Virus record (IMG/VR): IMGVR_UViG_3300032236_001850
Location: 52,392-116,391 of that record
Source of the DNA: a virus
Length of the DNA: 64,000 nucleotides
Strand: one strand, 5' to 3'
Shown here: positions 20,749-60,602 of the stretch, piece by piece
Numbering within the stretch: the first letter of the stretch is position 1
How the letters are laid out: each line of letters opens with the position of its first letter
Translations under genes and position numbers: made by a program
The notes under the pieces: model-generated
Databases searched by the model: none
What the model was told of the DNA's origin: nothing
The model's input: only the letters and a program-made list of their open reading frames with translations

Positions 20749-21822
20749 ATGGAAAATAATAAAAAGTTTTTAAAGAACTATTTAGATGCATTCTCCCCCG
20801 TAGGAAAAGAATTTGAAGGACAGAAAATTTGGATTGATTACGTTAGACCCTTTGTTAATGAAATGAGAGTAGATGCTTATGGTACAGCATACGGTCTTAT
20901 CAAGGGAACAGGAGAAAAGAAAGTAATCTTGGAAAGCCACGTTGATGAAATTTCCTGGATTGTGACAGAGATAGAATCAAATGGAATGATCCGGGTTAAA
21001 ACTAATGGTGGATCAGACAACATGATTGCCCCATCAATGACAGTGCTTGTCCACACTCACGAGGGTAAAAAGATACCTGGAGTTTTTGGATGGCCTGCTA
21101 TCCACGTTAGAGAAAAAAGAGTTGAGATGGGACCGGAAGTTCACGAACTTTGGGTTGACCTTGGAGTTGACACTGCAAAGAAAGTTGCAAAACTTGGTGT
21201 TGAGGTTGGAAACTGCGTTACTTTTGACCAACCTTTCTTTGAACTTGGTAAGTATTACGTTGGTAGATCACTAGACAACAAAATTGGTGGATATATCATC
21301 GCAGAGGTTGCAAGAGAGCTTAAAGAAGAGGGTACGGTTTTACCATTCGACCTTTACATCGTTAATGCTGTCCAGGAGGAAGTTGGTTTATTTGGAGCGA
21401 GATTGATTGCTCAAACAATTAAACCAGACATCGCATTGGTTCACGATGTTACACACAACACAAACTCTCCTAAGATGAACAAAGCCAAATCTGGTGATGT
21501 TAAGGGAGGTGCAGGTCCGGTTATCGAGTATTCATCTCAAAACCACAAAGACCTAATCAAGATTGTTAGAGACGTTGCTAAGAAAAAAGAAATCCCTATG
21601 CAGCTGTCTGTTGGATCATACGGAAACGACACTGTTTCTTTCTTCCTTGAAAACGTCCCTACGGTGATCGTAGCGAGTCCGTTGAAGTATATGCATACTA
21701 CAGTAGAGATGGTTCACAAAGATGACGTAGCGGCTGCAATACAAGTTTTTAAAGAGACATTAAAGCAGTTGACTACAGGTACTATCGTTACCATCAACGA
21801 CCAAACACATAAATACGTATAA
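20749..21822 (+). CDS. M42 family metallo-aminopeptidase (FrvX/glutamyl aminopeptidase-like)
   Basis: 357 aa; N-terminus and YVGRSLDNKIGGYII (cf. GkalDDRaGc) pattern typical of M42 peptidases. Confidence 0.7.
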   Translation: MENNKKFLKNYLDAFSPVGKEFEGQKIWIDYVRPFVNEMRVDAYGTAYGLIKGTGEKKVILESHVDEISWIVTEIESNGMIRVKTNGGSDNMIAPSMTVLVHTHEGKKIPGVFGWPAIHVREKRVEMGPEVHELWVDLGVDTAKKVAKLGVEVGNCVTFDQPFFELGKYYVGRSLDNKIGGYIIAEVARELKEEGTVLPFDLYIVNAVQEEVGLFGARLIAQTIKPDIALVHDVTHNTNSPKMNKAKSGDVKGGAGPVIEYSSQNHKDLIKIVRDVAKKKEIPMQLSVGSYGNDTVSFFLENVPTVIVASPLKYMHTTVEMVHKDDVAAAIQVFKETLKQLTTGTIVTINDQTHKYV

Positions 21823-27255: not shown

Positions 27256-28941
27256 ATGAATAAATTAAACGAAACTTTTAAAATCAACCCGCTTTACGAA
27301 TCTGACGGGTACAAAGTTGGCCACAAAGCAATGTTGGCAGAAAACACTTCAGTTGAATATTGGACTTGGATCCCTAGAAGCATCAAGTACATGCACCCAT
27401 CAATCGATGGTATCATGTCAGCAGGTGAACAGCTAGTTTGGAGATACATCCACAGCAACTTCCAGGAGTTATTCTTCAACAAACCAGTGGAAGCTGCAGA
27501 AAAATTCGGAAGAGACATGGCTGCATATCTTATGATGGATTACGACGCCGATCATTTTGTGGAACTTCATAAACTTGGATATCTTCCAGTTAGAATCAAA
27601 GCCATTCCTGAAGGGACATTTACAAAACCAAATATTCCACACATGACAGGAATCAACACAGTTGATGGTTATGCTTGGCTTGGACTTTACTTAGAAACTT
27701 TGGTTTCTAAGTTGGCTTGGCAATTACCAACTGCTGCTACCATCGCACACAGATTCAAACAGAATGCTGTTGAATGGGTTACCAAAACAGATCCAGAGAA
27801 TCTTTGGTTAGCTGATTTCATGTGTCACGATTTCCACAGTAGAGGTGGTAACCCTTTCACCTCGATTGCAGTTGGTTTAGGACATGCCATGAGTAATTCA
27901 GGTAGCGACACATTAAATGTTATTCCAGCATCAAGATACTACTACGATTTTGATGAGAACGAGGTTCCTGTCTATAGTGTTAATGCTTCAGAGCACAGTG
28001 TGACATGCACAGGTATTTTCTTCTACGAGAAAAAATTAAGAAGCGGTTTATTAAACCACGAAATTGTTTCTTACTACACAAGCACTGCACCTTCAGAGGG
28101 ATCAGTTCAGGATCCTGACTATTTAGCAATTGCTGAATTACTTAATCTTCGTGATTGGTTGGAAAAATTTCCTAAAGGTATTCTTTCAGTTGTTTCTGAC
28201 ACGATGAATCTATGGAAGGTGATCACTCACATCCTACCAAGACTTAAAAAAGAAATCCTTGCAAGAGATGGCAAATTGGTAATTAGACCTGACAGTGGAG
28301 ACCCAGTTGATATCATTTGTGGAACAACAACTATTAATAACAAGTGGGTAGAAGGAATACTTCCGCAATCTGAGTGTGAAAAGAAAGGTGTAATAGAACT
28401 TCTTTGGGACATCTTTGGAGGTGAAGAAACTTCAACTGGATACAAAAGATTAGATTCTCACATTGGAGCAATCTACGGGGATTCAATCAACTTAGAAAGA
28501 CAAATCGCTATCTACACAAGATTAGCAGATAAAGGATTTTCAGCTACAAACATCGTGGTTGGTGTTGGTTCTTACACGTATGTTATGCTAACGAGAGACT
28601 CCGCTGGATATGCAGCTAAAGGAGCTTGGTTCGCTACTAAGGAATTTAACGGTGTTGATCCTGATGGTCAAACCGATTATATCACAACGGAGTATAACAT
28701 CTACAAAGATCCAGTAACTGATAACGGTACTAAAAAATCATTAAAAGGTTTCTGCCAGGTATTCAATAATAGACCAGATGCTTTACCTCACGAGATTAAG
28801 TACGACGGTAAGGATCAATTGGAAGTAAACACCGAATGCACTAAGGATCAAGAAGCTGGTGGTTTATTAAATATCATCTACGAAGATGGTAAATTCTATA
28901 ATCAAGTCACACTAACAGAGATTAGAGAAAGATTAAAATAA
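27256..28941 (+). CDS. nadV: nicotinamide phosphoribosyltransferase (NAMPT/NadV family; Namat-type not excluded)
   Basis: 561 aa; N-terminal NPLYESDGYKVGHKAM (cf. TDSYKVTH), length and overall pattern typical of NAMPT. Confidence 0.8.
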   Translation: MNKLNETFKINPLYESDGYKVGHKAMLAENTSVEYWTWIPRSIKYMHPSIDGIMSAGEQLVWRYIHSNFQELFFNKPVEAAEKFGRDMAAYLMMDYDADHFVELHKLGYLPVRIKAIPEGTFTKPNIPHMTGINTVDGYAWLGLYLETLVSKLAWQLPTAATIAHRFKQNAVEWVTKTDPENLWLADFMCHDFHSRGGNPFTSIAVGLGHAMSNSGSDTLNVIPASRYYYDFDENEVPVYSVNASEHSVTCTGIFFYEKKLRSGLLNHEIVSYYTSTAPSEGSVQDPDYLAIAELLNLRDWLEKFPKGILSVVSDTMNLWKVITHILPRLKKEILARDGKLVIRPDSGDPVDIICGTTTINNKWVEGILPQSECEKKGVIELLWDIFGGEETSTGYKRLDSHIGAIYGDSINLERQIAIYTRLADKGFSATNIVVGVGSYTYVMLTRDSAGYAAKGAWFATKEFNGVDPDGQTDYITTEYNIYKDPVTDNGTKKSLKGFCQVFNNRPDALPHEIKYDGKDQLEVNTECTKDQEAGGLLNIIYEDGKFYNQVTLTEIRERLK

Positions 28942-47086: not shown

Positions 47087-47153
47087 CTTCCAAATTATTT
47101 TTTTATTCAAAAAGGATTCCTTATATTTGCCTTGTAATTAAAAACAAAACAAA

Positions 47154-47222
47154 ATGGGAAAAGCAATAATAGGAATAATAGGAATAGCAGCAACTGTAAT
47201 AGTGATGATGCTAACCAAGTAA
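47154..47222 (+). CDS. 22-aa hydrophobic mini-protein
   Basis: MGKAIIGIIGIAATVIVMMLTK; canonical promoter motif 47096-47135 at the usual spacing. Confidence 0.3.
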   Translation: MGKAIIGIIGIAATVIVMMLTK

Positions 47223-47231
47223 ATTAAAAAA

Positions 47232-47308
47232 GGTCCTTAAACTTAATTGGCATGGCGCCAAACTGGCTTCTAAACCCAGCGTCTCCGGTTCGAGTCCGGT
47301 AGGGATCA
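47232..47308 (+). tRNA. tRNA (candidate anticodon CUA, amber-reading; assignment unverified)
   Basis: acceptor ggtcctt/agggatc (2 GU); canonical T-arm tccgg-ttcgagt-ccggt with G53-C61; stem ctgg(c)/(c)ccag around loop ttCTAaa with U33 and A37; D-arm not resolved by eye. Confidence 0.4.
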
Positions 47309-47655: not shown

Positions 47656-47807
47656 CGGAGAGTAGGGGTAACCCAAAAATAGCTAAGCTGTGTTAAGCGA
47701 CAGAACTGATAATCTGTTAGAAGCTAGGTTGGATGGCGGAAAGCTTATAATGTGAGAAATCATGTTATAACGTGGCAGACGCTAGATTAGAGAAAGGACG
47801 CGATCGG

Positions 47808-47886
47808 GGTTGGAATACCGATAATGGCGAAAATGGAAGAACCAACGCTTTAATTACCATTGTGGGTTCGAATCCCACTTCAACCA
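47808..47886 (+). ncRNA. tRNA-like element (alternative 5' end at 47727 with class-II D-arm start)
   Basis: acceptor ggttgga/ttcaacc, T-arm gtggg-ttcgaat-cccac; ggttgga-tg-gcg-gaa also at 47727; D/anticodon arms not canonical by eye. Confidence 0.3.
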
Positions 47887-47899
47887 CAAATCAACGATG

Positions 47900-48060
47900 T
47901 TAACTACCTGTGGTATCTACGGGGGCTAGGGAGAAACCTAGAAACTTACTTCGGTAAGTTAAGGAGCAAATGAGTTACAGTTCGGATTTAAACCTTAAAA
48001 AAGCTACTGCTTTAATGATATGTAGATTCAGAATAGCTTGTACTATTTAGGTACCTGAAC
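47900..48060 (+). ncRNA. structured RNA candidate (hairpins incl. UUCG tetraloop)
   Basis: ctagg-gagaaa-cctag hairpin; acttac-ttcg-gtaagt UUCG-tetraloop hairpin; no ORF; GC above surroundings. Confidence 0.25.
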
Positions 48061-48128
48061 CATTCAAAGAAGTTTTAGCAGATGATGATATTTTTTAGCT
48101 GCGGCGGAAATTTTTTGATTCATCAAAC

Positions 48129-48220
48129 AGCCAGGTAGGCACAAGGTCGGTTCGAGTCCGATGGAAGGTCATGGATGACGGGTAGCACCCTGCATGGAGG
48201 TTCGATTCCTTCACTGGCTA
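48129..48220 (+). tRNA. class-II-length tRNA-like gene (92 nt; possible tRNA-Ser, anticodon-arm placement unresolved)
   Basis: acceptor agccagg/actggct (6/7 bp), U8A9, T-arm ggagg-ttcgatt-ccttc; internal hairpin gtcgg-ttCGAgt-ccgat. Confidence 0.35.
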
Positions 48221-48351
48221 CAAAAACATAACAGGATTAAGTTCGACCTTGCCGAGATTAAGCCTCGTATCTTATATTTTTATTACGGTCTTTGCCGACC
48301 CAGAAATATCGGATATCGCTAGCGTGGTAGCGGGATGTTATGTTTTTATTT

Positions 48352-48633
48352 GATCAGATGGCGGAATTGGTAGACGCACCCCAAAAAACAAAGCATCTGA
48401 GGGGCGGTTAAATAAGGAGGACGCAGACTCCGAATAATCCAGAACAGCAAGGACGTAAGATGAAATGACATCTTCAGCCTTGTGTCGGAAGTTGGGAATT
48501 AACCCGTGATACCAGAATAACCGATGTTCCAAGGTAGGTTATTCTTTAGGTGTGAGATGAAGACCGTTAAGGTTGAGTGACACAAGGGATTGACAGGGTC
48601 CAAATCGTACAGGTTCGAATCCTGTTCTGATCA
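48352..48633 (+). tRNA. class-II tRNA candidate whose halves lie ~280 nt apart (possible intron or insertion-containing tRNA)
   Basis: gatcaga-tg-gcg-gaattggtaga-cgc (acceptor, U8G9, 3-bp D-stem, class-II D-loop) at 48352-48377; acagg-ttcgaat-cctgt T-arm + tctgatc acceptor strand (perfect 7-bp complement) + discriminator A at 48609-48633. Confidence 0.4.
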
Positions 48634-48790
48634 CAAAAAAATGGAATATGACATTTGATGAATGGATTTATAAGGTTTGCTTACATATAAGCAACAGGAC
48701 AAGAAAGGAGATTACTGATGTTTATTCATCAATTGATCTAACAGATGCAAAGCTAACATTTCTGGACGGGATTAATCCGGAAGAATATAA

Positions 48791-49051
48791 TTGAGTATGA
48801 TTGAGTACTATGTAGGTATTGATCCTAAAGACAGAGAAAAGTTTGATTCTTATGTTGAATATCTGAATAATGATCAGCAATGCGACCCTAAATGTAAAAT
48901 AGAGGTTCTGCATGAATTTGATGATCCTGACGGATACTATACATTTATGATTCAGGGTCATTGGGATTCATACACTAAATTTTTAGGAGAAACCGGATAC
49001 GGTAGAGAAACGGATGGATTTGTTAAATCAATCAATCACTACGAGGAATAG
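48791..49051 (+). CDS. hypothetical protein
   Basis: ORF track. Confidence 0.4.
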   Translation: MSMIEYYVGIDPKDREKFDSYVEYLNNDQQCDPKCKIEVLHEFDDPDGYYTFMIQGHWDSYTKFLGETGYGRETDGFVKSINHYEE

Positions 49052-49054
49052 ATT

Positions 49055-49381
49055 ATGAACGTTGACTTATTTAGACACTGGATTCCAGATCTAAGACTAA
49101 CTCGGAATAAGAGTGCTTATGTTGCAAAACAGTGTCCAGTTTGTCCGCGTACACCGCATAGTAAATCATTTAGAATAAACACCAAACTTAAAGTTTGGAA
49201 ATGTTATCAGTGTGGCAGAAGTGGTAAATCATTTAACAAAATGATACATTACTTAAAGAAGAGAGACACTAAAAGAAAGGAGTTACAATATTTGAAGAAA
49301 ATAGGTCGTCGTCCAAAGTGTGTTCCTATTGACGTTCATTACGGGTGTGAAACGTACTATGAATCTACGTTACCGTTTTGA
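49055..49381 (+). CDS. zinc-ribbon protein
   Basis: CPVCPRTPHS ... CYQCGRSG CxxC pairs; followed by strong terminator. Confidence 0.45.
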   Translation: MNVDLFRHWIPDLRLTRNKSAYVAKQCPVCPRTPHSKSFRINTKLKVWKCYQCGRSGKSFNKMIHYLKKRDTKRKELQYLKKIGRRPKCVPIDVHYGCETYYESTLPF

Positions 49382-49488: not shown

Positions 49489-49842
49489 ATGACTTAGATT
49501 AACAAATTTCAAGAAACAAAACTGGTAGTAATCACCAGAGCTGATATTCATCCAGGGTATCAAATTGTCCAGAGCACACATTCGCTCGCAGATTTTGCAC
49601 ACGAACATCCTACAAAGTTCAAAGAATGGAAAGAGACAACAAATTCTATAATTTGTCTCTCCGCAAAATCAGAATCTCATTTAATTAAACTTTACGAAAA
49701 ATTAAGACACGTCACAGAGGCATCATTATTTTTTGAGCCTGATGTTGACGCATATACTTCTGCGTGCTTTTTTGGCACTCCGCAGGTTAGGAAATCATTG
49801 TCCAACCTTTCGTTATCTCTAAAAAATCTACAAACATCATGA
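49489..49842 (+). CDS. PTH2-family peptidyl-tRNA hydrolase; in-frame TAG at codon 3 (49495-49497)
   Basis: hand translation (not in ORF track: no ATG after the TAG): KLVVITRADIHPGYQIVQSTHSLA, KFKEWKETTNSIICLSAKSESHLIKLYEKLRHV, FFEPDVDAYTSACFFGTP collinear with PTH2 (VVRtDL.MGkGK.AAQcsHAA ... W...G..KVvlKv..e.eL..L...A...GL ... DAGrT....g..TvlaIGP). Confidence 0.55.
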
Positions 49843-50249
49843 AAGGAATTCTAAAAGTTAGAAACATTGACTCTATTAAAAAGCTGAGTCTTAAAAGGGC
49901 CATCGGTAAACAGAAAGGCCTATGGTTTAGAATGATGAAGATCAGAACCACAATTCTATTTCTTGAAGAGCACAACATGCTCAAAATTCAACAGCTGTGG
50001 GATATACTGGAAGTTTATCTGAATTACCAAATCGAATATTCTAAATTGCAGTATCTGATCTACATTAGAAAAAGAGGCTCCTGGAGTAATTATTCTACAC
50101 TATCACAGGAAACTATGGAAGAGTATATTAAAAAGATCGCCGTTAATTCCCATAGAATGACCAGCAATCTTCCATACGAAATCTATTACAAGTACAGGGT
50201 ATCTATAGGTGAAATGGAAAGGAAAATAAATGAAAATAAAGGCATTTAA
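49839..50249 (+). CDS. hypothetical protein
   Basis: ORF track; ATGA overlap with PTH2 stop. Confidence 0.4.
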   Translation: MKGILKVRNIDSIKKLSLKRAIGKQKGLWFRMMKIRTTILFLEEHNMLKIQQLWDILEVYLNYQIEYSKLQYLIYIRKRGSWSNYSTLSQETMEEYIKKIAVNSHRMTSNLPYEIYYKYRVSIGEMERKINENKGI

Positions 50250-51968: not shown

Positions 51969-52697
51969 ATGGAATTAAAAAGAAATCCTAAAGCTCCTTC
52001 TAATAACAGAAGCTGGTCAACAATGGACGATTCAACATTAATCAAAATGGCAAGAGGTGGTGCTTCGGCTGCAGAGATTGCAAAAATCTTAGGAAGAACT
52101 GTTATGGCGGTAACTACAAGAAAACACAATCTTCATGTTGATGTTCGTTTAACATCATCTAAAGGTAAAGGTGTGGATGCACCAAAATCAGTTTCTGTTA
52201 GAAATAGAAACAAGAAAAAAGAATTGCCAGTTAGAGTTATTTCAAGAACTGCTGCACCACAACCCGTTAATGTTGTTTCAGCGGGAATCACAAAGGTAAC
52301 AAAACCAGTTTGGACTAAAGAGGAAGACGCTAAACTTTTATCTTTGGCTGCTGAGGGTAAATCAGCAAAGGAGATTGGAAAGATTCTAGGAAGAACATCA
52401 GTTGCTGTAACTGTTAGAAAATACGGATTGAATAAATCTCAAGAGTTAACTAACAAAAAAGCAAACGTAAAAGTTGACAACAAAGCCGACGAGAAAAGAT
52501 CTGCAATGTTGGCGAGAATGGAAAAAATGAGAGCTGCTAAGGGTAAAAATAAAAAATTACCAGTAGTGGAAGAAGCTGCTTCGGTTCCAGCTACCAAAAT
52601 GGAAAAAATTGTTTCTTCAGCTGAAAGCGATTTTGATGCTCTTTCAAGAATTGCTAAAAGTACAGGAGCTACAATCACAGTGGTTTTTGGAAAATAG
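51969..52697 (+). CDS. DNA-binding protein with two HTH repeats
   Basis: ORF track (51942); ATG 51969 fits motif spacing; repeats WSTMDDSTLIKMARGGASAAEIAKILGRTVMAVTTRK / WTKEEDAKLLSLAAEGKSAKEIGKILGRTSVAVTVRK. Confidence 0.5.
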   Translation: MELKRNPKAPSNNRSWSTMDDSTLIKMARGGASAAEIAKILGRTVMAVTTRKHNLHVDVRLTSSKGKGVDAPKSVSVRNRNKKKELPVRVISRTAAPQPVNVVSAGITKVTKPVWTKEEDAKLLSLAAEGKSAKEIGKILGRTSVAVTVRKYGLNKSQELTNKKANVKVDNKADEKRSAMLARMEKMRAAKGKNKKLPVVEEAASVPATKMEKIVSSAESDFDALSRIAKSTGATITVVFGK

Positions 52698-55082: not shown

Positions 55083-58000
55083 GTGTCAAATCCATTAAAT
55101 CTTACAGGACAGTTTATAGCCGACACATACGGAAGATTATTACAGGTACAAGGTAATAATGTCTATGACGGCGAGGGTAACTATTTATATACAATTGGAG
55201 GAACTGGTGGAGGTACAGTTGGACCGCAAGGGCCTACTGGAGCAACAGGTTCACCAGGATCCAACGGAGCTACAGGTTCACAGGGAGCAACAGGAGCTAA
55301 CGGTTCGACTGGACCACAAGGAGCAACAGGTTCACAGGGAGCAACAGGAGCTAACGGTTCGACTGGACCACAAGGAGCAACTGGAACTAGCGGTGCTACG
55401 GGAGCTACGGGTAGAACAGGTGCTACGGGAGCTACAGGTTCAACGGGAGCTAATGGTGCTACGGGAGCTACAGGTTCACAAGGTGTTATGGGCTCAACTG
55501 GAGCAACGGGTATAACAGGTACAGACGGATCCAATAGTGGAAAATGGATATTATCAACATCATCAAGCCCATCACCAGGTACCTTCTTTACAAATTCCAC
55601 AAATACCGGTGACACCTCACAGATAATAATCAGCAATCTAGCGGACAATCTGACAAACTATTATGGCTGGAATCAAGCTGCTTCGGCTGCAACTGCATTG
55701 GGTAATCCCCTTTATTTGCAGATTTCCGAAGTTGGTAATGCTACAGTCAGCGGAATTTACCAAATAACAGCGGTGAATGATAATACAGGGTCATACTCTT
55801 ATGTTGTTTTATCCATATTATCGGCGGGAGGATTATTTACAATAGGAAAAGAATATACAATATCATGGGTATATTCGGGTAAGAATGGGGTGGATGGATT
55901 CCAAATAGTAAATATTGAAAACAATGAGGAATTAGTTCATCTTATAAATACTAGTCATCTTTTAAGTGGATGCTATTATAACATAAAAAGTGTGGATTTT
56001 AACTTGGATTACAGATTCGATTCAAAATCATACACAAACATTCTTTTGCTTGCATTAGCTAATAATAAAATAGCGGAGGATGGATATGGTATATTCTACA
56101 CACCCAAATATGATCAGTTCCCAATATTTTCATCCAATATTGCTTATAGTGTTGGAGATAGAGTCATATGGGGAGGCTACGTATGGACGTGCACGGTGTC
56201 AACATCACCAGTGACTGCACCGAGTCCATTTGAACTTAATCCAGATTATTGGACAACAGGATATTACAAGGACAATACAAATTTCTATAATGTTTCATTG
56301 GATTCCATAAAATATGACTATATAAACGATAGAATAATTTATAGAGAGGAAAAAAATACAAATATTGTTAGCACTAATAATGAAAATATATTATATTGGG
56401 AAAGCTTATTTGGAACATATAACTCTCCTATAAACGGCGACATAAAGTTCTACAATCCCATAAAATCATTCCAATGGGGTAACGTCTACGATGGCCAATA
56501 TGGTATAGGTAACCAGTACATTGAAAATTCATACAATGAAAATATAAATTTTAGTGGCGATTATCAAACTAATATAAAATTTACAAATCTATCATATCAA
56601 AGATTTTATAGTATATCGAATGATACTTCATCAATCTTTGTTGGTGGTGGATTTTCATCCTATACAAATCCAAGTTCATTGATTACAGAGGCTCACGGAT
56701 TAATCGAAATAACACCAACATATTACACTGATCAAATTTTTGATCAAGGATATGGATTTGATAATGGTTCGATGACCTCAGTAATACAGAAAGACCAAAA
56801 AATAATAATTGGCGGTGACTTTACAACTTACACTAACGGGACAACTTACACAGTTAATCGTATAATAAGATTGAATCAATGGGGTTCTATTGACACAACT
56901 TTCGCTACAGGAGGCGGTTTCAATAGTGCTGTTTTTGCTTTAGCTTTACAGGAAGATGGTAAAATTTTAGTTGGTGGAAGTTTTGATGCTTACGATGGAA
57001 GTTCTGCTAAATATATAGCCAGATTAAACCCCGATGGACAATTGGACAACTTTAATCTGGGGGAATTTGGATTTGATAACGATACCTATGTTAGCTGTTT
57101 AGCGGTACAACCAGATGGAAAGATTTTAGTTGGTGGAGGTTTCAATTCATACAACAGTAACACAGCAATAAAAATAGTAAGGTTAAATCCCGATGGAACT
57201 TACGATAACACATTTTTAACCGGTGATGGATTTAACGGTGATGTTAAATCAATAGTTATCCAGAAGGACGGAAAGATTTTAGTTGGGGGTCAATTTGACG
57301 CATTCAATGGTGACTCTGCAAATTACATAGCTAGGCTAAATCCTGACGGATCCAACGATGGCACCATAGGAACAACCGGATTTAATGGTGGTGTTAATTG
57401 TATAACTTTACAAAGGGATGGTAAAATTTTAGTTGGTGGTCAATTCAGTCAATATGATTCGAATACAATCAGTAACATAGTGAGACTAGAAAGTTCTGGA
57501 GCATATGATCCAACATTTGCTTATCTGGCGGAAAATCAGGGCGAAGTTAACGTGATAGTGGTGAATGATAACACCATAATCGCAGGAGGTAAGACTGAAA
57601 ATTTCAATCTAATAAAATTTGATTTGCTTGGGAATGATCTCTATTACTATCCAATAGATAATGGAGTTAGTACAATACAGATAGTACAAAAAACATACCA
57701 ATCAAATCTAACTTTCGATAACGGATCGCATCAGGACAGCGTAAGATTAAGATCAGGATCACAAGACACGATCAATCTAACAGATGGATCTTACCAGGAT
57801 ATGATTGGTCTTAATTTTTCTTATCAATCAAAATTAAATCTCAGAAATTCAAATCAAAATATTAAATTTCTAAACAGAGTTTATCAGAATGAGATTGAGC
57901 TAAAAAATTCCAACCAGATACTCAATTTAGCATTCGGAAGCTACCAAATTAATTTGGATTTATACAATTCCGAACAGCTTATTCCCGAACAAATTGAAAA

Positions 58001-60602
58001 CGTTATTCAGGAGAATATAAGCATAAAGAATTACAACTATGATAGGACAGTTCATCCAATAACTGGTTCGGAGTATAATCAATCATTCATGAATGATCTG
58101 GAGGTGAACAATTCAGCTCCTAAATTAATAGCTATCTCGAATAATAAATTATATGAACTTGAGGTTAGTTCGATTAGTGGAGGTACTGGTGCAACACCAA
58201 CAATTAATCAGGTATTAGGAGCAGGCGAATATGCAACGGATAAAAATATGGTGCTAAATACGTCGACAGATGCATTTAATACGTATCTTACACCAGGTCA
58301 GGTTGCAGTAAATAATGGTGTTGAGAGTATAAGAATGACTCCATCAGCCATCTCATTTTCAACACCATCCGGAGGCTCATCATTTTTAAAACCAAGTCTA
58401 ACACAACCATCTGCATTTTCTCCTACGTTTTACTTACCTGAAAAAGCAAGCACGTCAAACTATACGTTAGCTACCACTGCTGATTACAATCTACAAGCTG
58501 TAACAGCCAATGCCAACACAACAAATCTAGATATACAATTTCAGCCAGTTACCAATACAGGTGCAACTGGTACCAAATTTGTAACGATACAAAACACTGG
58601 TATTTTTCTATTGGGTACCAACCAGACAACTACAAATGTTTTCAACGATAGAATAGAATGGTCTCAATATGGAAATACCATTACTCTAGGAGCAACTACT
58701 GCAGCTGCTTCCAATAGTGCTAATTACATATTCCCAATAAAACCATTCTCAGGAACTCCCTATACATTAGCAACAACTGCTGATACCATTTCAGTATCTT
58801 CAGGTAACACTAACAATCTACAAATTTCCTCAATAGGGACAAACAGAGTATTTTATTCAAAAGGTCTAGTATCCTCAAATGGGTCAGTTACAGTGGGAAC
58901 TACAGGAACTACAGGAGGTACATCATGGGCATGGGATCTTAAGGTAAACGGTGTGACTGGTGCTACTGGCTCCAATGGAGCAACAGGAGCTACAGGATCT
59001 AACGGTTCTAATGGAGCAACGGGAGCAACTGGATCACAAGGTATCCAAGGTGTTACTGGAGCAACGGGAGCAACTGGATCACAAGGTATCCAAGGTGTTA
59101 CTGGAGCTACAGGATCTAATGGAGCAACAGGTTCTGCCGGAGCTACTGGAGCAACGGGATCACAAGGTATTCAAGGGGTTACTGGAGCTACAGGGGCTAC
59201 AGGAGCAAATTCAACAGTTCCTGGACCAACAGGAGCAACTGGTGCAACAGGATCACAAGGTATCCAAGGGGTTACTGGAGCAACTGGAAATAGCATCTCA
59301 GCAAGTTTCATGAGAGGATCTAGATCCGCCATGCAAACTCTGAATCTAACACCTAATAGTTTAGTTGCATTCACACAAATAGATCTTTCAACAGGTTCGG
59401 ATATTTCTTTGAACGCGTCAACCGGTCAGATAACACTAGCAGCTAATAGAGTTTATAGAATACTCGGACAAGTTCCAAATGGTATAGCAAGTGGTTCCAA
59501 TATAAGACCATCGTTCTCCTGGTATAATGAAACAGCAGGTACCTGGATAGGAAGCCAATCGGCAATCTATCAACCTTCAGACGCTGCGGGATATTGGTCA
59601 TCAGGAGGTCCATCTGATGCACTATTATCAACCAGCACATCAACTGTTATATCATATAGAATTCTTTCAGCAAGTGGTAGTATAACCGGTCTTGGAGCTA
59701 ATACAGATTTTGGTCTTACTGGTTCATATCCATGGTTTGATATACAAGTAATATCTGGAAATTCACCACTTCTAAATGGAGCTACAGGAGCAACCGGTGC
59801 AACGGGAGCCAGTATAACTGGACCAACTGGTGCAACGGGAGCCACTGGATCTGTTGGAGCAACAGGACCAACTGGTGCTACTTTCAATACAGTTCCTGCT
59901 ATCAACTGGGGTACTAACACTTTTACTAAATCTGGTTCAGGTAATGGTGATCAATTGCTTGATAATGGAACTAACGATACACCGGGAGTTCTTTTATATT
60001 ACGGAAATAACTCAAACTATGGTATTGATAGTTATAATGGTTCTTACAATGTTTTAAGCGGTCAGTTATTGAGATTTGTTACTAATCTAAATGAAGCTGG
60101 TGGTGCTATAAAAGCTGCATTCGATACATCGGGTAATTTAGCTCTTAGTGGATTTATAAATCCGAGCTCGTGGCGAGCTGGACAGACAATACAGACGAAA
60201 TTATTTAGTGCTAGCGATTTAGGATTTACAACAAACTATACCAACAGTACGAACACTTATACCTCCATAGTTACCGGTACTTATACCCCTCTGTCCTCAT
60301 CCTCGTACATTTTCTTTGAAGTTTATGCAATGTATGATGTTGGTGGTGCCGCTGCCGACTCATTCTTCTCCCAAATAACATGGAATGGTGGGGAAATTGG
60401 GGTTCAACGTCAAGTTTGGGCTAACGGTGCGGGTGGTGGTACACGTAGTGGTACATTATTTCCATTGGCTGGTAGAGTAACGAACTCCTCCACGACTGGT
60501 TATGGATGGGCAGTTAATACCAGAAGAGATTCTTCCGATGATGGTATTACTGTATATCCTAACGGTGGATTCTATGTGAAAATAACAGAAATCGCTAGAT
60601 AA
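55083..60602 (+). CDS. giant tail-fibre-like protein (1839 aa) with collagen-like G-X-Y repeats, delta-60-type beta-propeller repeats and short periodic repeats
   Basis: G-X-Y runs at aa ~40-155, ~1295-1410, ~1560-1600; ~8 repeats of [11 protein letters not shown]....I.RLNPDG..D..F (aa ~560-830); ~11-aa periodic xSxQxxIxLxN repeats (aa ~870-960). Confidence 0.7.
58956..59292 (+). repeat. tandem ~45-nt coding repeats ([15 protein letters not shown] units) in fibre 1
   Basis: repeated ggatcacaaggtatccaaggtgttactggagc(a/t)ac(g/a)gga units. Confidence 0.7.

Follow-up and report, generated by a model that had tools for sequence, protein, structure and literature searches.

A Non-canonical tRNA(CUA) Gene and a Conserved Early In-Frame TAG in a PTH2-Like Gene Suggest a Dedicated Suppressor-Target Pair in Huge Phages

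Results

Overview of the Locus

The stretch of DNA analyzed here, referred to as the window, comprises 64,000 nt (positions 52,392 to 116,391) of the IMG/VR virus record IMGVR_UViG_3300032236_001850. It is phage-like: its guanine-plus-cytosine (GC) content is 36%, and its ~94 genes lie chiefly on one strand and are readable in the standard code. On the + strand, a 77-nt element at positions 47232–47308 resembles a transfer RNA (tRNA) gene with the anticodon CUA, which would read the stop codon UAG; the CCA end is not encoded. Covariation within its family and a covariance model point to a non-canonical amber-suppressor tRNA gene. A PTH2-like peptidyl-tRNA hydrolase gene (49489–49842, + strand), of which the third codon is TAG (49495–49497), begins 2.2 kb downstream and is the putative target of this tRNA. 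No nucleotide relative of the window was found among deposited phages. The 4.6-kb neighborhood of the element was also without a match, and the tRNA element itself yielded only generic T-arm matches.

Detection of the tRNA(CUA) Element by Standard Tools

The layout of the element is GGUCCUUA AACUUAA UUGGC-AUGGC-GCCAA A CUGGC-UUCUAAA-CCCAG CGUCU CCGG-UUCGAGU-CCGG UAGGGAUC A, and its 5' and 3' ends are complementary. An anticodon call by ARAGORN, which the first-pass annotation had proposed as a check, was obtained only under relaxed settings. At default settings, 0 tRNA or transfer-messenger RNA (tmRNA) genes were reported in the whole 64-kb window, and a 78-nt "tRNA-Pyl(cta)" was called when the threshold was lowered to 80%. 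The "Pyl" label reflects the anticodon only, as the program prints it for any CUA anticodon. With Rfam at gathering thresholds, the only match in the window was a different element (4271–4327), and positions 47232–47308 were not reported. A permissive local Rfam scan placed the tRNA model RF00005 exactly on 47232–47308; this alignment left out the D-arm and scored 23.6 bits (cut-off, 29). The folding energy of the single sequence did not differ significantly from that of shuffled sequences (z = −1.6 and −1.1), and comparative evidence was therefore relied on. By itself the element is a sub-threshold candidate; it is the comparative evidence that lifts it above chance.

Homologs and Covariation

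Relatives of the 273-residue protein encoded next to the element were found on IMG/VR contigs as long as 430 kb, and in the three closest of these (L001, L002, and L003) the element was found in syntenic position. Pattern, protein-anchored and covariance-model searches yielded a family of 15 distinct sequences of the same unusual layout. For the covariation test, a gap-free alignment of the three main helices was used, with 13 distinct rows from huge-phage contigs. Standard pairs filled 94% of the cells, and 14 of the 17 pairs showed double-sided (compensatory) changes. None of 500 column shuffles reached the observed values, and pairing fell to ≤49% when the 3' partners were slid by 1–3 columns; because the sequences are related by descent, the shuffle statistics overstate independence, which is mitigated by the slid-register controls and by the number of distinct helix sequences. 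The anticodon loop was YUCUAAN, of which U33, C34-U35-A36, and A37 were invariant among the 13 distinct sequences. CUA was invariant not only in these 13 non-canonical sequences but also in more than 10 canonical relatives. Finally, the covariance model built from the family scored the window copy at 74.5 bits. Taken together, these comparisons show that the element encodes a genuine structured RNA.

The tRNA-like gene with a CUA anticodon that the first-pass annotation had placed at 47232–47308 is thus borne out by the syntenic homologs, the covariation and the family covariance model. The stem CUGG(C)/(C)CCAG that it had drawn around the loop UUCUAAA, with CUA at 47270–47272, was confirmed in the sequence. 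The anticodon register had been called uncertain. Given that the anticodon stem covaries, the CUA register is fixed independently of eye or program, and no register with a sense anticodon was supported.

A fully canonical tRNA(CUA), called by ARAGORN at its default threshold, is carried by a more distant relative (L025/L133; 357-kb contig). This tRNA has the D-arm ACUU-AAUCGGCUA-AAGU and has in common with the window element the ACUUAAU segment and the position upstream of PTH2. Because this canonical tRNA(CUA) shares the ACTTAAT segment and the locus, the window-type tRNA is taken to be derived from an ordinary canonical suppressor tRNA, that is, from a genuine suppressor lineage. Another suppressor relative, at 2350–2432 of contig L113, immediately precedes PTH2. 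Between the 4-bp stems of its anticodon region, the sequence is GUCCUAAC, which is shorter by one nucleotide, and the register is therefore ambiguous.

Fold of the Element

The acceptor stem consists of eight pairs. Its 5' strand (47232–47239, + strand, 8 nt) pairs with 47300–47307, and A47308 is the discriminator. Seven of the eight pairs showed double-sided changes, and 98% of the cells were paired. The eighth pair was G-C in six, A-U in three, C-G in two and G-U in two of the 13 sequences. The T arm (47285–47299, + strand) has the loop UUCGAGU and the stem CCGG/CCGG, which is 4 bp long in all 13 sequences, with 100% of the cells paired and double-sided changes in three of the four pairs. 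The acceptor branch therefore has 8 + 4 = 12 bp, a total as in normal tRNAs, and the earlier description of a "canonical acceptor and T-arm" was wrong, as the split is 8/4 and not 7/5. The window contains six exact matches to GGTTCRANTCC, where 0.14 were expected, and the T arm is one of them.

No complementary 3' strand was found for a canonical D-stem (positions 10–13 with 22–25, 2-nt connector to the acceptor). The D-arm could not be folded by eye in the first-pass annotation because a D-arm of the usual form is absent. The tRNA positions 10–11 (AC; 47241–47242, + strand) have their pairing partners in the variable region (G47281 and U47282). In the family, this short helix of nt 10–12 with the variable region encloses a substitute hairpin together with the anticodon arm. 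Its pairs changed by lineage (AC/GU, GU/AC, GCU/AGC, AUC/GAU, GAA/UUC, ACAU/AUGU, and ACG/CGU). Complementarity between nt 10–12 and the variable region was 24 for cognate and 10.9 ± 2.4 for non-cognate combinations, and only two of 40,320 permutations reached the cognate value. In a fixed register, position 10 paired in all 14 sequences and position 11 in 11 of them. The covariation of this linker-variable helix was 0.72, compared with 0.30 in shuffles (0 of 500 reached the observed value) and ≤0.23 in slid registers.

The substitute "D" hairpin, UUGGC-AUGGC-GCCAA (47247–47261, + strand), has a conserved GG in its loop. Its stem was unlike in every lineage (UUGGC/GCCAA, UUGAC/GUCAA, ACGAUU/AAUCGU, CCAAUU/AAUUGG, CUACC/GGUAG, UCGAU/AUCGA, and others) and always paired, with the GG always in the loop. 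The stem ranged from 4 to 7 bp and the loop from 4 to 7 nt; a 6-bp stem with a tetraloop was found only in L001 and L002. The GG of the hairpin loop would stand in for G18/G19 of the D-loop. The anticodon arm (47263–47279, + strand) consists of the 4-bp stem CUGG/CCAG and the loop UUCUAAA, with CUA at 47270–47272, and four of its five stem pairs covary. The pair 31·39 is mismatched in 11 of the 13 members, in the window as C47267·C47275.

All members possess a 7-nt anticodon loop with U33 and a purine at position 37, the T-loop UUCGAGU and a GG for the elbow. Features of the canonical 7/5 cloverleaf that were not found are a score above the threshold of the general model, a branch of 7 + 5 bp and a D-stem of positions 10–13/22–25. 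The fold is, as far as the alignments can tell, a compact new solution to the tRNA L-shape, in which the branch is split 8/4, the D-stem strand is re-paired with the variable loop, and the GG is presented by a separate hairpin.

Selection on the shape of tRNAs is suggested by the restructured core and by the cluster of aberrant tRNA-like genes in the window, and PTH2 of jumbo phages has been proposed to help rescue ribosomes that cleaved tRNAs have jammed (Iyer et al., PMC7824862). The RNA might therefore be mainly a non-adaptor, for instance a decoy or resistant substitute against host tRNA-targeting defense nucleases. Its unusual core would then serve to evade recognition, and CUA and the TAG of PTH2 would be secondary. 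We hold this to be highly improbable. The most conserved parts of the RNA are those needed for decoding, namely the YUCUAAN loop, the 12-bp branch, the T-loop, and the GG of the elbow, and the 12-bp acceptor/T branch is the part recognized by EF-Tu (Mukai et al., PMC5389517). Moreover, a matching conserved codon is found in cis, relatives of canonical shape occupy the same locus, and no data require such a role.

The PTH2-Like Gene and Its Early TAG

The PTH2-like gene starts with ATG ACT TAG ATT AAC. The in-frame TAG at codon 3 was thus correctly annotated in the first pass (ATG ACT TAG at 49489–49497). The next in-frame ATG, GTG, or TTG is 100 codons downstream. The protein scored 22.0 bits against Pfam PF01981 (cut-off, 23), and many database homologs of the PTH2-like family carry a precomputed PF01981 match. 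When the family profile was compared with PDB, the archaeal Pth2 2zv3 was the best match (E = 1.7e-6), and 24bt, 1wn2, and 1q7s (archaeal and human Pth2) were also found. The top two Foldseek PDB matches of the AlphaFold model (pLDDT 78.7) were both 2zv3, with probabilities of 1.00 and 0.99 and TM of 0.51–0.55; all other matches had low probability, and the similarity is moderate, not strong. The residues H28, E80-P81-D82, and T87 were invariant in the family. Remote homology and fold suggest that the gene encodes a divergent PTH2, for which hydrolase activity is predicted.

A protein-anchored IMG/VR scan identified 53 PTH2 loci on contigs of up to 508 kb, of which 51 had an in-frame TAG just before the first β-strand. 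The usual starts were M-x-TAG, M-x-x-TAG, or M-x-x-x-TAG. The homologs first found beside the tRNA shared this early-TAG start down to 40% protein identity, and in the family the early TAG was conserved down to 35–40%. It was also found in the complete "uncultured phage" genomes LR756502 (642 kb), LR756504 (636 kb), and LR756501 (735 kb), in three further public contigs (L151, L152, and L153), and in the cultured Tenacibaculum phage pT24, whose annotated coding sequence BPT24_235 is N-terminally truncated to a downstream start ~42 codons past the TAG. The codon after TAG was ATT in 31, GTA in seven, ATA in six and GTT in two cases and in the PTH2-like family never ATG, GTG, or TTG; thus, no standard start is available there. 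The second codon of PTH2 was most commonly AAA or AAG (28 of 48 contexts). In at least 35 of the 53 loci, PTH2 was accompanied by a tRNA(CUA) within 2.5 kb, often <100 nt upstream. The closer clade carries the rewired type of this linked tRNA(CUA), and the more distant clade the canonical type.

Many public protein entries of the family read M-x-Q-I-N… (P0001–P0034; L151, 164–223; L152, 3001–3060) where the DNA has TAG. Glutamine as the inserted amino acid, which these homologs seem to indicate, was rejected, as the Q is an artifact of gene calling in code 15.

Upstream of PTH2 in L104, L128, and L135 (~2500), an ORF (open reading frame) of 240–305 codons has repeated CxxC zinc-ribbon motifs and is endonuclease-like. 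It runs in frame into the PTH2-gating TAG, and read-through would fuse it to PTH2. In L152 (2790–3000), no tRNA was seen in the interval of ~230 nt between a promoter-like TATATTTG box, an octamer described below, and PTH2, nor was there a CUA match in the rest of the locus. This interval contains ATG ATG TAG and then a ~110-nt RNA that is closed by an 11-bp stem (GATCCTCCTTA…TAAGGAGGATT) and followed by a T-run, a putative leader element.

In the window, the PTH2 stop is overlapped by the ATG (as ATGA) of a 136-residue ORF (49839–50249, + strand), and the same overlap was found in the translations of L002 and L003. The ORF had no Pfam or PHROG match. It is possibly translationally coupled to PTH2 and would then be indirectly amber-dependent. 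The C-terminal extension of the pT24 PTH2 was considered as a homolog of this ORF and rejected, as there was no similarity and no Pfam match.

In addition, mycobacteriophages Bxz1 (L144, 1477–2229, gp154) and Myrna (L145, 1477–2034, gp84) possess PTH2 with a tRNA(CUA) 130–310 nt downstream. The adjacency of PTH2 and suppressor thus recurs in phages of a different host phylum. In both, an in-frame TAG lies between the Shine-Dalgarno (SD) sequence and the GTG start. Because translation starts at this SD-GTG, mycobacteriophage PTH2 was rejected as a second gated example.

The early TAG could also be explained without suppression. The element would then be a decayed tRNA gene or a non-decoding tRNA-like RNA, and PTH2 would be made by reinitiation after a mini-ORF of 2–4 codons or from an AUU, AUA, or GUA start, with the mini-ORF as a regulatory leader comparable to the lambda bar minigenes. 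The sub-threshold scores in ARAGORN and Rfam and the non-significant folding energy are consistent with this explanation, and so is the irregularity of all other tRNA-like genes in the window. In 37 of the 46 contexts from huge phages, the next codon after the TAG is AUU or AUA, which are known weak near-cognate start codons (e.g., AUU of infC), and the TAG of the mycobacteriophages precedes a genuine SD-GTG start. The remaining nine contexts have GUA or GUU, however, which are not bacterial start codons, and these are found in other lineages. Decay would also not be expected to leave 14 of 17 pairs with compensatory changes, nor an invariant CUA with U33 and A37 in stems that differ nearly everywhere. 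Moreover, this view does not explain why a CUA tRNA accompanies a gene that contains a TAG at 35 or more of the 53 loci, and pT24 has only four tRNAs, one of which is the suppressor. Decay combined with reinitiation is therefore regarded as very unlikely.

TAG Usage in the Window and in Related Phages

Among the 94 genes of the window, TAA is the stop codon of 70, TAG of 18 and TGA of six, and the earlier statement that most genes read well in the standard code holds. PTH2 is the only window gene with an early TAG and without an alternative start. When TAG was read as a sense codon, ORF coverage did not increase over a TGA control in ~290 kb of related DNA, and TAG-joined ORF pairs exceeded that control neither in the window nor in 141 kb from the closest clade. 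In the canonical-tRNA clade, there were seven TAG-joined pairs versus one for TGA in 71 kb. The complete genome of pT24 (234,670 bp) is 90% coding in code 11 and contains 34 TAG stops. Its annotated terminase, portal, sheath, and baseplate genes are intact, and its joined ORF pairs number five for TAG versus 14 for TGA. The PTH2 homolog is the only early-TAG gene of pT24 without an alternative start, and the suppressor is among its four tRNAs. Backup stops followed 8 of the 18 TAG-terminated genes and 21 of the 70 TAA-terminated genes of the window, which is not significant as a signature of suppression. Two TAG-joined pairs of the window (2478–3062 with 3066–3947, and 48791–49051 with 49055–49381) were considered as extra targets and rejected, as the junctions were not conserved in relatives.

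The first-pass annotation had regarded suppressor tRNAs as a hallmark of recoded late genes, a reading that is not supported here, since TAG ends 18 of 94 genes, TAG-as-sense translation brings no gain over the TGA control and pT24 is a standard-code phage. Its other suggestion, that the tRNA serves a few specific genes with the TAG of PTH2 as a candidate target, gained support from the conserved early TAG and its linkage to tRNA(CUA). The scan for TAG-interrupted genes that it had called for found none elsewhere in the window, the DNA of relatives and pT24, and a strongly conserved one in PTH2. TAG is otherwise an ordinary stop.

In the 735-kb genome LR756501.1 (L143), PTH2 (3965–4369) has a second in-frame TAG (…EFP*IYEQW…), and two tandem tRNA(CUA) genes (6421–6574) lie 2 kb downstream of it; this lineage may therefore use TAG read-through more widely. 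This observation speaks for the explanation that the tRNA is the code-switch part of a genome-wide reassignment of TAG (code 15-type), whose other TAG genes lie outside the window. Suppressor tRNAs are strongly tied to TAG-recoded phages, and it is suspected that an unusual structure lets such tRNAs escape detection (Borges et al., bioRxiv 10.1101/2021.08.26.457843). The visible part of the genome is limited to ~64 kb, the canonical-tRNA clade has the seven TAG-joined pairs given above, and public gene callers picked code 15 for several small contigs with the PTH2-like gene. TAG should be depleted before or with reassignment, whereas it ends 18 of the 94 genes and outnumbers TGA threefold. In the window, a virion-protein-like gene and a gene for a repeat protein of 1839 residues are intact, and the ORF gain from TAG-as-sense reading equals that of TGA in the window and the closest clade. 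Similarly, pT24 reads in the standard code with its structural genes intact. In addition, the TAG of PTH2 has a conserved position before the first strand and is not scattered as in recoded genes. Genome-wide reassignment is thus judged unlikely.

Because the window, the closest clade and pT24 lack signs of recoding, a dedicated suppressor-target pair is favored. We consider it likely that the element is a genuine suppressor tRNA and that its conserved target is the UAG of PTH2.

Apart from the shared descent of the aligned sequences, several points weigh against this conclusion. The window copy is below the thresholds of both standard tRNA finders (ARAGORN and Rfam). Its anticodon stem has only four Watson-Crick pairs, and its linker-variable helix only two (A47241-U47282 and C47242-G47281), so that the existence of the latter in the window rests on the family. 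The PTH2 assignment relies on divergent homology, with a Pfam score just below the cut-off, a Foldseek TM of ~0.5 and putative catalytic residues. AUU or AUA follows the TAG in most homologs and may allow some reinitiation. No tRNA(CUA) was found within the 2.5-kb flanks in 18 of the 53 PTH2 loci. Distance accounts for at least some of these, L088 among them, since the order of genes can be that of the window, where the tRNA is 2.2 kb away. In L138, L139, and the mycobacteriophages, PTH2 adjoins tRNA(CUA) without a gating TAG, and the linkage is therefore not always one of gating. Finally, the 64 kb belong to a genome that may be 300–400 kb long, and TAG-containing late genes may lie elsewhere in it.

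Promoter-Like Box, Mini-ORF, and Host

The octamer TATATTTG occurs 17 times in the window, where 6.7 copies were expected, and none of 100 shuffles reached 17. Twelve of the 17 copies are on the + strand, mostly 5–45 nt upstream of + strand gene starts; the sites include 3988, 5054, 20719, 29003, 44924, 47122, and 51937. The copy at 47122–47129 (+ strand) lies upstream of a mini-ORF and the tRNA, and another is found 17 nt upstream of the homologous tRNA in contig L151. Its resemblance to the −7 promoter box of Bacteroidota, TAnnTTTG, suggests a promoter function. Given this resemblance, and as pT24 infects Tenacibaculum, the host is probably a member of the Bacteroidota. Identification of the host via cellular genomes was attempted and abandoned, as only two contigs of metagenome-assembled genomes (MAGs) matched, both probably phage. 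The PTH2-like family was found in only these two (L153 and L154) of 185,579 species-representative genomes, probably as mis-binned phage contigs. One of them is a 362,763-bp contig, filed under a Candidatus Paceibacterota MAG, whose size and coordinates are identical to those of an IMG/VR huge-phage contig.

Between the promoter-like box and the tRNA, a mini-ORF (47154–47222, + strand) encodes a hydrophobic peptide of 22 residues (MGKAIIGIIGIAATVIVMMLTK) and is probably a leader on the same transcript as the tRNA. It was found in the window and L003 only. Its absence from L001 and L002 indicates that it is not essential to the module.

Other Features of the Window

Several other tRNA-like elements of the window are irregular. 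At 4271–4327 (+ strand), a 57-nt tRNA-like gene has normal acceptor, D, and T arms and no anticodon arm. It is the gathering-level Rfam tRNA match mentioned above, with 34.2 bits and no other in the window, and opens an 830-nt non-coding stretch (4264–5098). In a tRNA-like sequence at 4530–4654 (+ strand; Rfam 30.8 bits in the local scan, no ARAGORN default call), the anticodon loop is enlarged by an insertion of 40 nt, and the variable region is 18 nt long. Another at 47727–47886 (+ strand; Rfam 27.9 bits) has a 55-nt insertion in the D-loop that forms a hairpin, a 10-nt loop at the anticodon position and a long variable region; the region 47656–48219 is 84–92% identical in L001 and L002. Two further irregular elements lie at 48129–48221 and 48352–48634 (+ strand). 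One of this pair has two T-arm-like hairpins in a single acceptor-like stem, and in the other a tRNA-Leu-type 5' part (GCGGAATTGGTAGACGC) and a T-arm/acceptor 3' part are ~209 nt apart. All six exact GGTTCRANTCC motifs of the window (0.14 expected) are in tRNA-like non-coding gaps. For the long tRNA-like neighbors, tmRNA and group I intron were considered and rejected, as there was no Rfam support; relaxed ARAGORN calls in them were inconsistent.

The protein of 1839 residues noted above (55083–60602, + strand) contains DUF5122 beta-propeller repeats and collagen triple-helix repeats, is intact in the standard code and is probably a fiber or surface protein. Moreover, the window contains two auxiliary metabolic genes on its + strand, which encode an M42 glutamyl aminopeptidase (20749–21822) and a nicotinamide/nicotinate phosphoribosyltransferase (27256–28941). 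An M42 gene and a YqeY-domain gene are also located just upstream of PTH2 in contig L152.

Discussion

Proposed Mechanism and Purpose

In the proposed mechanism, the tRNA would be transcribed from its own TATATTTG promoter-like box at 47122–47129, and the transcript would be matured and CCA-tailed by host enzymes and then charged. Ribosomes that start at the AUG of PTH2 would meet the UAG almost immediately. Without the charged suppressor, they would terminate or lose the dipeptidyl-tRNA, and with it, they would read through to make PTH2 and probably also the product of the ATGA-coupled downstream ORF. If read-through is needed for PTH2, the output of PTH2 would be set by the activity of the suppressor relative to that of release factor 1 (RF1). 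Aminoacylation, decoding, the gating itself, its purpose and the identity of the host are all predictions made from sequence.

The most likely purpose of such a gate would be to couple an enzyme of peptidyl-tRNA recycling and ribosome rescue to the onset and degree of UAG suppression, a suggestion that we make with lower confidence than that of the suppressor-target pair. Suppression would extend many TAG-terminated proteins, and ribosomes may reach the ends of mRNAs and be stranded. An early "hungry" UAG would also promote the drop-off of dipeptidyl-tRNA. Dipeptidyl-tRNAs, especially fMet-Lys, have been found to dissociate readily at a hungry A-site codon (PMC10192219). Loci related to that of the window also carry tmRNA genes. 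The adjacency of PTH2 and tRNA(CUA) without gating in L138, L139, Bxz1, and Myrna hints at a functional link beyond the gate; in Bxz1 and Myrna, PTH2 lies in large tRNA clusters.

Comparison With Known Systems

Similar to the 8/4 and 9/3 allo-tRNAs, the window family has a 12-bp acceptor branch that is split 8/4. Allo-tRNAs have a long variable arm, a selenocysteine-type D-arm with a long stem and a tetraloop, and the usual short connector. Different from these, the window family has a variable region of 5–7 nt that is paired with nt 10–12, a connector of 7–9 nt, a separate GG hairpin and a natural CUA anticodon. The 8/4 tRNAs work in bacterial translation, including as engineered amber suppressors, and some are phage-borne (Mukai et al., NAR 2017, PMC5389517).

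The window tRNA also resembles those of the pyrrolysine and selenocysteine systems in its odd shape, its stop-codon anticodon and its gene-specific use. In tRNA(Pyl), the anticodon stem is extended to 6 bp, the variable loop is only 3 nt long, and the elbow lacks the conserved GG and T-psi-C elements. A tRNA of the Pyl or selenocysteine type was rejected, as the structural hallmarks are absent: the anticodon stem of the window element has 4 bp and a mismatch, its variable region is 5 nt long, and it possesses both GG and UUCGA. The window, which was not searched exhaustively for pyl or sel genes, showed none. Unlike in these systems, the UAG of PTH2 lies in a dispensable N-terminal tail and not at a catalytic position.

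The likeness to the suppressors of stop-codon-recoded phages, such as crAss-like and Lak phages, is that of a CUA tRNA in a low-GC phage that probably infects Bacteroidota (Borges et al. 2021/2022; Peters et al. 2022). In both cases, expression of the tRNA is expected to make TAG-containing genes translatable, with the codon as a post-transcriptional switch. Different from the recoded phages, no genome-wide recoding is evident here, one position-conserved target codon is found in one gene family, and the tRNA is non-canonical and invisible to standard tRNA finders.

Among regulatory systems, the closest in logic is prfB, which encodes release factor 2 (RF2). As proposed for PTH2, an early in-frame stop in the mRNA of a translation factor senses termination efficiency and sets output. 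In prfB, the UGA is bypassed by +1 frameshifting and the product reads the codon, which gives negative feedback. In the proposed PTH2 gate, the bypass would be provided by a dedicated suppressor tRNA. PTH2 does not read UAG, and the logic of the gate would therefore be feed-forward, unlike that of prfB. The lambda bar minigenes are stand-alone ORFs of two to four codons, from which peptidyl-tRNA drops off and which are toxic in Pth-deficient hosts. They likewise tie a short ORF and its stop to peptidyl-tRNA hydrolase. In the phage PTH2 genes, by comparison, the "minigene" would be formed by the first codons of the gene for the hydrolase, and its frame runs on beyond the stop.

PTH2 was already known in jumbo phages (Iyer et al. 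2021, PMC7824862). The PTH2 of jumbo phages and the "peptidyl tRNA hydrolase" of cluster C mycobacteriophages are of the same family and lie among phage tRNA genes, and their descriptions do not include an amber codon. In the literature available in full text, with most subscription-journal papers lying outside the search, neither an amber codon in phage PTH2 nor a suppressor-PTH2 module was described. Suppressor tRNAs of phages that read in the standard code were not previously known to have a target; for jumbo phage XacN1, for instance, such tRNAs were reported for which the authors found no target (PMC5852040). What appears to be new here is the combination of a rewired tRNA core with a single-gene, position-conserved amber gate on an enzyme of translation quality control.

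Significance

A broader interpretation can be offered tentatively, and we regard it as possible though doubtful. The trio of tRNA(CUA), UAG, and PTH2 might be a self-contained sensor circuit and the reason why standard-code huge phages keep "orphan" suppressors. The UAG in its drop-off-prone AUG-AAR/ACU-UAG leader would measure the balance of suppressor and RF1 and set the amount of a hydrolase that clears the by-products of suppression. The circuit might also be the evolutionary foothold of later genome-wide TAG recoding, and the rewired core a new natural architecture that is orthogonal or resistant to host factors.

The results also bear on annotation. PTH2 is N-terminally truncated in public records (BPT24_235), and small contigs are pushed into code 15, which places a spurious Gln in public protein sets. 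Borges et al. suspected that non-canonical suppressors may be present in those TAG-recoded phages (~60%) that have "no suppressor." This suspicion is supported by a natural suppressor that is invisible to standard tRNA finders, and the family covariance model could serve to look for such hidden suppressors. The fold is of interest for the structural biology of tRNA and for engineering orthogonal amber suppressors. Finally, the orphan suppressor tRNAs of standard-code phages gain one conserved candidate target, which would be testable in the cultured Tenacibaculum phage pT24.

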